NCBI GenBank assembly: GCA_964558645.1
Contig: CAZLEV010000005.1
Location: 1-64,000 of the forward strand
Source: an uncultured archaeon
Lineage (GTDB): Archaea > Asgardarchaeota > Thorarchaeia > Thorarchaeales > Thorarchaeaceae
Reading direction: 5' to 3'
DNA: 64,000 nt
Shown here: in pieces, positions 20,928-26,553 of the stretch
Numbering within the stretch: position 1 is the stretch's first letter
Layout: each line of letters begins with the position of its first letter
Position numbers and translations under genes: made by a program
The notes under the pieces: generated by a model
Seen by the model: the letters and a program-made list of their open reading frames with translations, nothing else
What the model was told of the DNA's origin: nothing
The model's database searches: none

Positions 20928-22286
20928 TCAATCGCGTCCTCGTACCACTACTGCGAACTCACTAGCAAGCCGTCCATACCACTCTAGAAGATCTCTCATG
21001 TTGTCAACATGGCGGTATGTGCCGTTACCGTATTGAGCCATGGCCAGCATCAGCTCCTCATCAATCTCGCTTCTCTCGCCCAAACCAATGCAGTAAATCA
21101 CCAGTCTGTCTCTGTTTGGAAAATGCTCCTTCAGTACCTTCAGAGGCGGAGGCCCAGCTGTGGTCATTCCATCGGTAAGCATGATCAGCATGGTAGGTTT
21201 GGCCTCATCTCCAAATGCATCGAGAATTTCTCGTGTTTTGAGCAGTGCGCTCCCCATGTCAGTAAGCGTGCCGCCCTCTTCTACCTTGTCCACAACGTGG
21301 GTGCTGATTATCTGCAACCCTAGAGCCTTTTCCCGGCCCGTGCATTCAACAAATGGCTTCACGGCACCAGTTTCGGAATCGAGGAAAGTCATCTCGCTCA
21401 CTTCCTTTTCGAACGTGATGACTCCCACCTTCTCACCGTAACCTCTCCCTACTTTCTCTGCCAGATACAGCAAGACAGCCATTGCTGCCGCTTCAGCTCG
21501 GCTCACTCTGGCTCCTTCATCGAAGCGGTTCAGAAAACTCTGGACCTCCGGATTATCACCAGCCAGATCTTTCAGACCCTCCCTTGCATGAGCTATGTCC
21601 TGCACGGGTACATCAGTTGTCTTCATCGACCCACTAGTGTCAATGCAGAGAATAGCATTGAATGGGCTAGCGATGCCAACCGTCTTGAATTGGTAACCAG
21701 TCTTTTCTCTCAGAGCCTCAAAGGCGAGCTTTGCGAAGCTCTTGCCTGTTAGTGAGGGACGAGTCTTCAGGATCTCAACTTTCACTTCCATCTCAGGCCA
21801 GTTAAACGACATTCCCGGATATACGAGACGCCCACCCACCAACTGCTCTAGACTCTTCACCTTCTTAGATGCTCGAGAAACAAGGTCATCAGTGTTGGCA
21901 TCCTCGGTCAATGGTTTAAGCCCGAACTCGACGTATTCTAACGCGATCATATCATCATCATAAAGCTGTACCTCGACCAAATCCCCGTCCATCAAGAGAG
22001 ATGCCTCCAAAACAAGAGTGTCAACCTCTATCTTCCCTTCATCTAGGTCCTCATTCTTTCTAACCTCAGCTGCTCCCCAGAAACTGCTCTGAGGGTCTTC
22101 AAACAGGACTATTGAACCAATCTCAGCATCGAGCTGTTTCATGGTTTCTGGATTCAGCAGAGCAAAGCCTCGCTGATTACCACCGTCCAGAATCTCAAGT
22201 TCGATTTTTCTCGTTATTGCTGCGGCCTCCAAAGTCGAATTCGTCTTGAATAGTGCCTGTGTCGTTATAAAGAGTGGTGGCATCAA
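20928..22286 (-). CDS. Cdc48-N-like domain plus vWA domain protein (intact MIDAS)
   Basis: 'RGFALLNPETMKQLDAEIGSIV', 'MDGDLVEV', 'GRLVYPG', 'EILKTRP' (Cdc48 N domain); 'CIDTSGSM', 'TDMG', 'MLTDG' (vWA). Confidence 0.8.
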   Translation of the reverse strand: MMPPLFITTQALFKTNSTLEAAAITRKIELEILDGGNQRGFALLNPETMKQLDAEIGSIVLFEDPQSSFWGAAEVRKNEDLDEGKIEVDTLVLEASLLMDGDLVEVQLYDDDMIALEYVEFGLKPLTEDANTDDLVSRASKKVKSLEQLVGGRLVYPGMSFNWPEMEVKVEILKTRPSLTGKSFAKLAFEALREKTGYQFKTVGIASPFNAILCIDTSGSMKTTDVPVQDIAHAREGLKDLAGDNPEVQSFLNRFDEGARVSRAEAAAMAVLLYLAEKVGRGYGEKVGVITFEKEVSEMTFLDSETGAVKPFVECTGREKALGLQIISTHVVDKVEEGGTLTDMGSALLKTREILDAFGDEAKPTMLIMLTDGMTTAGPPPLKVLKEHFPNRDRLVIYCIGLGERSEIDEELMLAMAQYGNGTYRHVDNMRDLLEWYGRLASEFAVVVRGRD

Positions 22287-22289
22287 TCT

Positions 22290-23777: not shown

Positions 23778-23922
23778 CGACAGTTTCTCTCCGTAGAGAT
23801 GCTCACATATGGCCCTCATAAACTGTTACTGTATGTTCTAGAGAATTGCTCCTTAAACACCCGCATTATGCATATATCGGTAGAACCCAGAGTACGTATG
23901 TAGTGATAAGAGGGAACGACTA

Positions 23923-26553
23923 ATGCTGGTTGTTGAAGACGTCAAGACAAGAGAAATCTACCGGTTTCTTGTCGTAGACGGTTGTATGCAACTCGGCTTA
24001 ATCAGCCTCAACAGCCACGAGAAGATTTTCGACCCTGACAGAGCCCTTGGATACGTGTCACGGGTAGAGGGACAGCTTCTTTCCTTGGTTGCGAGCTACA
24101 AGCATTCCTACCGTTATATACCTCGAAAGGCGTATGCCCATCTCAAGAAACCACCTTTCTTGGCTCGCCTGTCCGGAGGACCAGCTGGGGCCCGAGATAC
24201 CGAATGGTTTGTCGATCAGTTCTCAGTCAAACCACTTCTTAGCATTGGAGGTCTGGATCTATCAAGGAGAAACCGAGAGAAGAGTTCAAGGATGTTGAGA
24301 GAACTAACAAGAGACGGCCAATACGGAGGGCGATTCTTCAGAATTCAAGAAACCAGGGAGAGTGGGTCACTAGCGGGGTTTACTATCTCAATTAGGGCAA
24401 ACGAAATCGCACAGGCAATGGAGGGTGAATACCGGAACGACATTCTTCGTTTAGTTAAGAGTGGAGGGGCAATACTCATCCAACTGGATGAATTTGAGGA
24501 ACTGGATGAGATTCTGAAATGGCTCATTCTCCTGAAAGACGCCAAGATGGGAATACCATCAGTAATCCTTCACGTTTTGGACCATAAGAAATGGACTAGT
24601 AAAATCGAAAGGCTTGTTGAGATTCCTAATGCGCGTATATTGACTGCAGGAGCCACCGTTGTTTCTCTCTCTTCACTGATTGGCGCCCTTAGAAGAAAGC
24701 TAGGAGACCGCTGGTCCGAACGCATGGTCTTTGGAACGAACTACCCTGAAACCGGCGTGGGGGATGGAATACCTGAGATACTCAGCTATCTTCTGAGCAA
24801 GAACCTCGATGCATCACCAGAAGACATCCAACGAATACTCAGCGGAAATATTCTATCCCTTATCCCTCTCAGGCCGCCCTATCTCAAGTACCAAGACCGA
24901 AACGGTGGTGTAGTTGCAGAAGGGCATCTAGGAAGACCTGCCTTGCAAGAACTACAGAGAGTAATCCAAATACTGACCTCTAGCAGAGACTACACACTCG
25001 AATCGTTCAACTACTTGTATGACAAAGAATCAGGGACGGTTGACACCTCAACCTATGTCCTCACGCTTTTGGATGAACAGGCAAGACGTGCGACAACACT
25101 GATTGTAAGAGAGAATCCGAACAGCAACCTGGAGATCTGTACATGGAATCCCCACTTCGATGTGGCGGGTGCTTCCAAGAATCCGACCGACTTGAAGACC
25201 CTCGCAAAATCGTATTCAAGAACTTCGTCAGTCGTATTCGATTCGCCAATCCAGCTCAACTCTTATGTTACCGCTTTGACCAGATGCCTCAACATTCGAA
25301 GACCACAAGAGCTATTGGCTGCGTTGAGATATCAACTTGAAACCGGCGACATTCCGCGCGGGTATCTGTGCCTGGCTGATGTGAACATCGACGCGCTTGG
25401 CAGCACAGCAGACAAGAAGCTTCTCGCCATGAGTCAGAGAAAGGGGCAATGGTGGGTGGCGAGAAGTCTGCCAAGCTCTGACATAACACCCAGAACAGCA
25501 GTTATTTCAGAGGGCGATCGAAGAAGCCTCGGTCTGGAATCTGGTGAGGAGATAGATCTCACCGAATATCAGGAGAGCATAACCAAGGTTGACAGAGCTA
25601 TCTTTGTCACAAAAGCGCAAGAAGATGTAGATCCAGGTGAGATGGCGTCATATCTTCATCTGCAATGGAACCAGATAGAAGAAACTATCCGACCGCTTCT
25701 TCTGGGACAGGGCAGTAAGGTATACCCGTTTACTGCGCGTGAGAGTCTCGCACTTGAGTTGATCAGAACGAATCCCCCCATAAAGACAGGCGAAATAGCA
25801 GATTTGGCAAAGGCAGACATAGTTGCTACACAGCCCGAATTCCTTCGAGATGTTGATGTCATAATCTGCATCGCACTTAGTAAGCGGATGACAGTCAAGG
25901 ATTTGAAAATAGAGGCTCCATACTCTGTTTCCTTAAAACTCAAGGATATCCTTCGGGGGTTAGGTAGTTACTCGAATCTTCTTGATACTTCGGATGTGTA
26001 CTCATCCCGTCTCCAAGGAGCTGTAGTATCGGCACTGCTCATCATTGAATCACTCGAGGAAAACAGATCGGAGGGAAGGCTAGGTCTATGTTTAGCCGGA
26101 GAGCGTCTGAGGAAGTTCTCTATTCAACACGGCGAAGACATTCATGATTTCGTCGACTTTGACAGAGATTTGGAATCCCCTGAAGTCAAGACCGCGCTGA
26201 AGCTATTCGTACTCGATGCCCTACAAGAAGAGAGGTCTGACCAGGCAATTGCCAACTCGTACCGGGCGATTGGTGAATATGCGGATGACTTTGGTTTGTC
26301 CCGCCCAACACTGGCAATTCTCATTGGAGATTCGTTGGAATCCCCAGATGATGCGGCCCAGGGATTCATCGATGTGCTTCCTAGCCATGAGTGCTTCGAG
26401 CTTCTCAGACTCGGAACACAGGGCTCCGTTGAATCACCAAAGACGGCGAATCGAAATACGGTGAGTCTTGATCCACTCTCAGTTCAGAGACTGATAGGAG
26501 AGTTGGCAAGTTCTCTTCGCGCTTTGGACAAGAATCAGTCATCATCTAAATGA
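23923..26553 (+). CDS. Fusion of degenerate amidohydrolase, Cdc48-N-like and degenerate vWA domains
   Basis: 'VVDGCMQLG', 'MVFGTNYP', 'SPEDIQRILSGN' match 22290-23777; 'RGYLCL', 'LGLESGEEIDL', 'IRTNP', 'IICIALSKRM', 'RPTLAILIGDS' match 20928-22286. Confidence 0.75.
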   Translation: MLVVEDVKTREIYRFLVVDGCMQLGLISLNSHEKIFDPDRALGYVSRVEGQLLSLVASYKHSYRYIPRKAYAHLKKPPFLARLSGGPAGARDTEWFVDQFSVKPLLSIGGLDLSRRNREKSSRMLRELTRDGQYGGRFFRIQETRESGSLAGFTISIRANEIAQAMEGEYRNDILRLVKSGGAILIQLDEFEELDEILKWLILLKDAKMGIPSVILHVLDHKKWTSKIERLVEIPNARILTAGATVVSLSSLIGALRRKLGDRWSERMVFGTNYPETGVGDGIPEILSYLLSKNLDASPEDIQRILSGNILSLIPLRPPYLKYQDRNGGVVAEGHLGRPALQELQRVIQILTSSRDYTLESFNYLYDKESGTVDTSTYVLTLLDEQARRATTLIVRENPNSNLEICTWNPHFDVAGASKNPTDLKTLAKSYSRTSSVVFDSPIQLNSYVTALTRCLNIRRPQELLAALRYQLETGDIPRGYLCLADVNIDALGSTADKKLLAMSQRKGQWWVARSLPSSDITPRTAVISEGDRRSLGLESGEEIDLTEYQESITKVDRAIFVTKAQEDVDPGEMASYLHLQWNQIEETIRPLLLGQGSKVYPFTARESLALELIRTNPPIKTGEIADLAKADIVATQPEFLRDVDVIICIALSKRMTVKDLKIEAPYSVSLKLKDILRGLGSYSNLLDTSDVYSSRLQGAVVSALLIIESLEENRSEGRLGLCLAGERLRKFSIQHGEDIHDFVDFDRDLESPEVKTALKLFVLDALQEERSDQAIANSYRAIGEYADDFGLSRPTLAILIGDSLESPDDAAQGFIDVLPSHECFELLRLGTQGSVESPKTANRNTVSLDPLSVQRLIGELASSLRALDKNQSSSK

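Follow-up and report, generated by a model that had tools for sequence, protein, structure and literature searches.

Catalytically dead paralogues kept beside an active relative, as in the pairs Rpn11-Rpn8 and CSN5-CSN6, are familiar, and so are Rosetta-stone fusions, in which the joining of two otherwise separate proteins reveals their functional link. We describe here a gene that has features of both. It lies within the first 64,000 nucleotides (hereafter, the window) of contig CAZLEV010000005.1, from the GenBank assembly GCA_964558645.1 of an uncultured archaeon of the order Thorarchaeales; homologues of its genes bear the name Thorarchaeota (Asgard) in public records. The gene is an open reading frame (ORF) encoding 876 aa on the plus strand (23923-26553), and it is a fused, degenerate copy of two neighbouring genes of the minus strand. 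One of these encodes an Amidohydro_2 hydrolase of 509 aa (22290-23819), the other a protein of 452 aa (20928-22286) that joins a Cdc48-N domain to a von Willebrand factor A (vWA) domain, and which we call the Cdc48N-vWA protein. Unlike in the known enzyme/pseudoenzyme pairs, two unrelated proteins at once appear to have been duplicated, joined into one chain and inactivated. Several Asgard classes have kept the resulting protein, and the dead copy can outlive the live pair. We read the fusion as an ancient, selectively maintained single-chain pseudoenzyme that would act as an autonomous non-catalytic binding or scaffold paralogue of the pair; judging from sequence and model comparisons, we give this reading a probability of about 0.72. 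We found no published description of the fusion, or of the module to which it belongs, in the literature.

Both halves of the fusion have well-described relatives. Its barrel fold is that of the Amidohydro_2 enzymes (PF04909; COG3618/COG2159-type, with structures such as 4dlf, 3cjp, the LigI-like 4i6k and 2ffi), and the active neighbour, a match to the corresponding Pfam model, has preserved their HxH, His and Asp residues. The fusion, unlike these enzymes, has none of the metal and catalytic residues, and both it and its active neighbour differ from them by an extra alpha/beta domain of ~130-150 aa. The fold of the Cdc48/p97/NSF N domain is found in the active Cdc48N-vWA protein and in the fusion. 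In contrast to Cdc48, the N domain is followed by a vWA domain instead of an AAA+ ATPase domain, of which neither Pfam nor the structural model gave any sign in the active protein.

The fusion is collinear with the minus-strand pair from end to end, and the order of its domains is the gene order of the pair. Within the window, BLASTP aligned residues 263-349 of the fusion with residues 308-387 of the amidohydrolase (E=3e-11), and residues 538-807 with residues 98-376 of the vWA protein (E=0.003, over 292 residues). Orthologue comparisons covered 20 genomes of 16 genera, and when orthologues from other genera were used the best matches across paralogues reached 2.6e-19 for the C half (408 aa) and 5e-15 for the N half (395 aa). 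Family profiles compared with hhalign aligned nearly the whole protein: residues 1-406 with residues 11-459 of the amidohydrolase (E=8e-25, probability 99.6%), and residues 461-866 with residues 21-445 of the Cdc48N-vWA protein (E=2.6e-25, probability 99.7%). The sole Pfam signal on the fusion was the tail of Amidohydro_2, which at 14 bits is below the cut-off of 26.4. The AlphaFold (AF2) model has a mean predicted local distance difference test score (pLDDT) of 86.3. Its residues 15-316 form an Amidohydro_2 TIM barrel, with VIA-align Z scores of 14.6-16.3 to 4dlf (16.3), 3cjp (15.7), 4i6k, 6uvz and 2ffi over 216-228 aligned residues. Residues 329-460 form an alpha/beta domain that hhalign identifies as the counterpart of the C-terminal extension of the active amidohydrolase. 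In the model, residues 469-639 fold as a Cdc48-N domain (9v9o, Z 13.7) and residues 638-874 as a vWA domain (9doc, Z 17.0, among many vWA structures with Z of 14.9-17.0).

The residues on which catalysis and metal binding would depend in the live proteins are missing from both halves. The comparison covered 41 fusions, 41 Asgard Cdc48N-vWA proteins and 28 active amidohydrolases, the last drawn from nine family-level groups of Asgard archaea. Among the active amidohydrolases, D41, H43, H45, K194, H196, D228, H260 and D318 are each conserved in at least 95% of the sequences. The fusions retain D41 alone (as D19), and in place of D318 they have N, S, G or A depending on the lineage, with no polar replacement of a catalytic type. 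The metal-ion-dependent adhesion site (MIDAS; DxSxS..T..D) of the active Cdc48N-vWA proteins has an invariant D216 and S218, with S220, T342 and D372 at 90% or more; all five positions are lost across the fusion family. In the window, the fusion reads VVDGCMQLG and GTNY in the barrel, and IALSKRM, SDQAIA and IGDS in the vWA domain. Fusions from Jordarchaeia/Freyarchaeota retain vestiges (HIH and, of the MIDAS, its leading D and S), as would be expected of a loss that is derived and stepwise. Ten barrel positions are common to the active and fusion families, the shared positions being D41/19, G47/25, D116/98, P122/104, R157/137, P224/183, W309/264, S310/265, N352/309 and the start Met. Other residues are invariant in the fusions and specific to them (L24, N121, G243, P275, P315, W510, D765 and E785).

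Taken together, homology, folds and residue loss confirm what a preliminary description of the locus had noticed, an 876-aa ORF in which paralogues of its two neighbours, degenerate at their catalytic residues, are fused. Its ORF coordinates are those of the window's ORF list, and all six motif pairs it quoted are present in the translations and fall in aligned columns of the significant profile alignments. The loss of the metal ligands that it reported for both domains (HxH, the catalytic Asp and DxSxS) is seen in all the orthologues compared.

The fusion is maintained. It is full length in 55 of the 61 Thorarchaeales genomes in which we counted presence, nearly always as an open frame of 870-920 aa. 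Between this genome and its closest relative, at an unsaturated synonymous divergence (dS 0.3-0.4), the ratio of nonsynonymous to synonymous substitution rates (dN/dS) of the fusion is 0.20, and 0.16-0.25 in every domain; the same comparison gives lower values for the amidohydrolase (0.12) and the Cdc48N-vWA protein (0.06). The claim that the ORF is intact and kept thus holds, and the gene is under purifying selection: in close relatives the gene is neither absent nor frameshifted as a rule, with a single broken copy. The divergent intergenic region between the amidohydrolase and the fusion (23778-23922) was aligned over 10 loci from several genera. Two blocks in it are conserved across Thorarchaeales genera: ATAAACTATT on the minus strand, which precedes the start of the amidohydrolase by ~45 bp, and CAYTATGCATATATC, which precedes the ATG of the fusion by ~45-50 bp. 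These two are probably back-to-back archaeal TATA boxes.

The amidohydrolase matches PF04909 with E=5.7e-8 (33.3 bits, above the cut-off), its DxHxH and KLHP motifs, H260 and D318 are conserved in nine Asgard families, and its C-terminal extension spans ~150 aa. It carries the full metal and catalytic set and is predicted to be of the active type. Its true start is likely M15, at 23777, the residue at which orthologues begin. We found no sequence relatives of this family in the PDB. The Cdc48N-vWA protein scores 34.6 bits with Pfam VWA_2 (cut-off 27), has Z scores of 19-22 to vWA structures, and its MIDAS is intact (D216, S218, S220, T342, D372). Its N domain consists of a double-psi barrel and a beta-clam, with a TMt of 0.69-0.75 to the N domain of p97 over ~185 columns (Foldseek). 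Its profile matches those of the double-psi beta-barrel (DPBB) and Cdc48 families with E values of 1e-5 to 3e-4, and Pfam CDC48_N gives a sub-threshold signal (19.6 bits, cut-off 35.1). The protein is very strongly conserved, with 77-85% identity between genera. In another family-level lineage (f24), locus L049 encodes a 764-aa Cdc48N-vWA protein (14837-17131, plus strand) with extra N-terminal copies of the double-psi barrel, seen as two short profile matches ahead of the full-length one.

The genomic evidence links these two genes to each other, separately from the fusion. The pair is Asgard-wide, and most Asgard lineages carry it without any fusion. The Cdc48N-vWA gene directly follows the amidohydrolase gene in the family-level lineages f6, f7 and f19, the latter two having two pairs each, of which one in f19 has a gap of 1 kb, and the genes are 3-6 kb apart in f22, f24 and f27. 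The trees of the two genes are congruent down to their subclades, among them that of a second (b-type) pair, whose two genes were duplicated together. Adjacency and congruent trees argue for a functional coupling of the pair, so that the Rosetta-stone linkage that the preliminary description had drawn from the fusion is well supported. We infer that the two proteins form a physical complex. The uncharacterised amidohydrolase would thus act with a strongly conserved Cdc48N-vWA protein, and the fusion offers a natural single-chain template to model the active two-protein complex. At the junction of the two genes, the TAG stop of the amidohydrolase (22290-22292) is followed by AGA TTG ATG in frame with the Cdc48N-vWA gene (22281-22292, minus strand), such that read-through of this TAG would give a protein of ~965 aa with the architecture of the fusion. 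An in-frame TAG also occurs in three other lineages (L034, L035, L039). We discarded a joining of the active pair by pyrrolysine or other read-through: the frame relation is at the level expected by chance over ~16 lineages, and we found no PylD in the genome.

The fusion is older than the Thorarchaeales. One cluster of fusions, of 889 aa, bears the name Jordarchaeia/Freyarchaeota, and genome searches revealed fusions of 847-895 aa in two more family-level groups, f19 and f7. The fusions form one clade of four family-level lineages (f1, f2, f19 and f7) in unrooted maximum likelihood trees, with a support of 100/100 in the tree of the N half and 82/80 in that of the C half (100/99 for the active clade), although the rapid evolution of the dead copy may exaggerate the depth of this clade. 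Both halves give the same inner split, f1 and f2 versus f19 and f7. A single clade with matching splits in the two halves indicates a single fusion event that predates these lineages. In f7 and f19 the fusion lies ~13 kb from the active pair, on the same strand and not head-to-head. Its divergent neighbour in these two families outside the Thorarchaeales is not the active pair but an SPFH/Band-7 (stomatin-like) protein (Pfam E=5e-32), encoded at 18908-19954 (plus strand) in L052, 2349-3353 (minus) in L051 and 16233-17180 (minus) in L053. At the DNA level, a search for an inverted repeat at the locus of the window gave only short chance matches. Since the fusion predates the lineages and is not head-to-head in f7 and f19, the head-to-head layout of the Thorarchaeales cannot be taken for a footprint of an inverted duplication. 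Hence, of the old inverted duplication plus fusion put forward in the preliminary description, the age and the fusion stand, whereas an inversion in place cannot be read from the layout.

Four genomes of four genera (G001, G003, G007 and G058; 77-98% complete) have an intact fusion and no active pair. Neither active gene was found anywhere in these assemblies, save for a 153-aa stump of the hydrolase in G058. In the window, the gene beyond the pair encodes a HEAT-repeat protein on the plus strand (19643-20926; Pfam HEAT_2, 2e-13). In the first three of the pair-less genomes (layouts L062, L063 and L038) this HEAT gene lies directly upstream of the fusion and is co-directional with it, which indicates that the pair was cleanly excised. 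Sister genomes of the same genera retain the pair. The ligase gene described below was also not found in G001 and G003. That the dead copy outlives the live pair favours an autonomous role over that of an obligate regulator. The earlier proposal of a scaffold or regulator is thereby narrowed, its second half being weakened as far as a regulator of the active pair is meant.

The pair and its fused copy belong to a wider module. Upstream on the plus strand (13055-16483), the window encodes a protein of 1142 aa with an N-terminal YbdK/GCS2-type carboxylate-amine ligase of ~470 aa followed by Ig-like repeats. The profile of this family matches YbdK (PDB 1r8g) with E=7e-12 in three motif blocks, and PF04107 matches 15 of 15 family members (best E 7.5e-10); the copy of the window alone scores 16.2 bits, below the cut-off of 21. 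The catalytic Glu, His and Arg residues (E19, E21, H169, H171, E284 and R286) are invariant in the family. In all Asgard families that were sampled, a ligase homologue adjoins the amidohydrolase. This holds even for f9, which has no Cdc48N-vWA gene in the vicinity; shorter forms (544-600 aa) without Ig repeats exist in f9 and f24. An ORF of 230 aa (12381-13073, plus strand) overlaps the start of the ligase gene and is syntenic in L037. On the other side of the fusion, the minus strand encodes a third Cdc48N-vWA paralogue of 390 aa (28005-29177), whose MIDAS is degenerate. It matches the Asgard-wide Cdc48N-vWA family over its full length (hhalign, probability 99.9, E=1e-34), forms its own clade in the trees and evolves fast, with 25-30% identity between genera and a dN/dS of 0.30. 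The core of the system is then a ligase, a hydrolase and a docking protein, to which the Thorarchaeales add two docking copies that lack a MIDAS, one of which is joined to a dead hydrolase in the fusion. The two-fold mirror image originally proposed is correct as to the collinear copy and incomplete as to the system, since the third paralogue and the ligase also belong to it.

The proposed mechanism starts with a duplication of the amidohydrolase and Cdc48N-vWA gene pair, after which the two copies would have fused and the metal-binding residues of both halves would have been lost. In the core, the ligase would form an amide bond, the amidohydrolase would reverse or process it, and the Cdc48N-vWA protein would dock a substrate or partner through its MIDAS. 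Ligase, hydrolase and a protein with two interaction domains suggest a make/break/bind system, which might act on a metabolite or else on a peptide or protein. The fusion would then be a covalent, non-catalytic replica of the amidohydrolase/Cdc48N-vWA complex. It retains residues of the old pocket rim (D19, D98, R137, W264 and N309), and with this rim and its Cdc48N and vWA surfaces it might serve as a receptor or scaffold that binds a partner or ligand and leaves it unhydrolysed. This is the most economical reading of a protein that keeps the folds, some pocket-rim residues and the interaction domains, and not the chemistry. The same retained rim, together with the fusion-specific invariant residues, could be taken to mean that the fusion is still an enzyme, with a rebuilt, metal-independent site. 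Some Amidohydro_2 members, such as LigI, do work without metal. However, these members still use the His/Asp set that the fusion has lost, and the replacements of D318 differ by lineage as they do at relaxed positions, so that we hold a rebuilt site to be improbable. Still less can be said for a decaying pseudogene or a mis-called ORF, to which the faster evolution of the fusion relative to its neighbours and the one broken copy would point. A frame that is open at full length in the great majority of the order and a low dN/dS at unsaturated dS refute it. Full-length copies in other Asgard classes, a confidently predicted fold and a conserved box upstream of the gene also speak against it, and we leave it almost no probability.

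The most serious rival holds that the fusion is an obligate regulatory partner, whose dead barrel and vWA domain would heterodimerise with their active counterparts, and which would only tether and tune the pair, in a manner that might be likened to pairs of the Rpn8-Rpn11 or INTS13-INTS14 type. Dimers are common among Amidohydro_2 enzymes, and vWA domains frequently associate in pairs. The divergent back-to-back promoters in the Thorarchaeales, the near-perfect co-occurrence of fusion and pair (both in 51 of the 61 genomes) and the shared barrel positions would all fit such a partnership. Yet it has to face the four genera in which the fusion stays intact after clean excision of both active genes, the distance of ~13 kb between fusion and pair in f7 and f19, where the fusion sits beside an SPFH/Band-7 gene, and the majority of Asgard lineages, which run the pair without a fusion. 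We consider it unlikely, if the strongest of the alternatives. A different objection concerns polarity. An active fused ancestor could have given rise to the pair by fission, and the remaining fused copy could have been inactivated later. The trees are unrooted, fusion and active clades are reciprocally monophyletic, and in four lineages, this genus included, one active gene is in frame with the other, with a lone TAG between them. On the other hand, the pair of separate genes has a much wider distribution (9 families) than the fusion (4), and no active fused form turned up among the 150 best family representatives or in searches for near or longer relatives, the last of which were weak. As for the TAG, chance alone would account for the shared frame (~4 of 16 lineages), and no PylD was found in the genome. 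Fission is therefore a rather remote prospect. Several observations nevertheless weigh against our preferred reading of an autonomous scaffold paralogue. The fusion copy of G029 is broken by four stops (2 TGA and 2 TAG), for which recoding of stop codons, a faulty assembly or decay confined to this locus could be responsible. The identity between genera is only 26-34% for the fusion, against 77-85% for the active vWA protein, and this fits a weak constraint. In G001, one of the genomes without the pair, the vWA half of the fusion is eroded (E=3e-63 for the C half, fusC, against 1e-113 to 1e-173 elsewhere), so that the fusion may depend on the pair to some extent. With unrooted trees, the proposed succession of duplication, fusion and inactivation is provisional, and the make/break/bind system draws on domain identities.

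Outside Asgard archaea, a parallel to the module as a whole is pupylation, whose PafA and Dop belong to the same broad carboxylate-amine ligase superfamily (PMC2588565). Both systems couple a GCS/GS-like amide ligase to an amide-cleaving enzyme and to protein-docking modules. They differ in that the cleaving enzyme is here an Amidohydro_2 barrel and no homologue of the ligase, and in that we saw no Pup-like tag and no link to a proteasome or ATPase. For the Cdc48N-vWA protein, the best two-domain structural match is the N-terminal domain (NTD) and SABA domain of DEPDC5/Iml1 (Sea1), from GATOR1/SEACIT. Foldseek matched 9v0j_C, 9o5a_B, 7t3a_A and 8ae6_W with E values of 6e-14 to 1e-11 over ~427 columns, at a TMq of only 0.37-0.39 and a root-mean-square deviation of ~10 A, and DEPDC5/Iml1 is also among the top structural matches of the fusion. 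A rigid-body comparison of the active protein listed only single, generic vWA domains. The NTD of DEPDC5 has been described as NSF/Sec18-N-like and SABA as Sec23-like, in a combination called unique (PMC8534245). A survey of Asgard genomes found NPRL2-like longin proteins in metagenome-assembled genomes of Thorarchaeota and reported no DEPDC5 relative (bioRxiv 10.1101/2020.10.19.343400). A link at the sequence level was sought and rejected: Pfam IML1 (PF12257) matches nothing at the locus, and its best match in the genome (E=0.125) is on another contig. The Pfam NPR2 model found nothing in this genome, DEPDC5 is not listed in the PDB profile search of the active Cdc48N-vWA protein, and the Atlas search returned vWA families only. 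In contrast to DEPDC5/Iml1, the Cdc48N-vWA protein ends after the vWA domain, without SHEN, DEP and CTD domains, and it is partnered by a hydrolase and a ligase where DEPDC5/Iml1 has Nprl2/3 and Rag GTPases. It is thus doubtful, on the strength of the modelled folds, that the Asgard Cdc48N-vWA family, MIDAS-less copies included, might be the ancestral stock of the NTD-SABA front half of DEPDC5/Iml1. If it were, the module could help to explain how a eukaryotic nutrient-signalling scaffold arose, and the fusion would display within archaea the same step as in eukaryotes, from a metal-dependent docking module of a ligase/hydrolase system to a purely structural scaffold.

The cluster contains further genes. 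Downstream of the fusion, the minus strand encodes a coiled-coil protein of 404 aa (26813-28027) and a protein of 388 aa (29177-30343) from another vWA subfamily (VWA_4 9e-14, VWA 6e-11), both of which are part of the syntenic cluster of the Thorarchaeales. Neither of them has sequence relatives that we could find in the PDB, and for the coiled-coil protein no relative turned up. In hhalign comparisons, these two families and that of the HEAT protein showed no profile similarity to the three that are paralogous. E2F sites are not enriched near the cluster (6 matches versus 5 expected). The HEAT gene is present in 58 of the 61 genomes, and we rejected the idea that it is strictly tied to the fusion, since it also occurs in genomes that lack both fusion and pair. 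In G029 (C3:780997-787770), the HEAT gene beside the broken fusion has in-frame stops as well (3 TAG), to which the same three explanations could apply. Several other HEAT matches have a single stop, in which case the alignment probably starts upstream of the true start. In the window, only a single base separates the stops of the convergent HEAT and Cdc48N-vWA genes (20926-20928), and this packing is conserved across genera.

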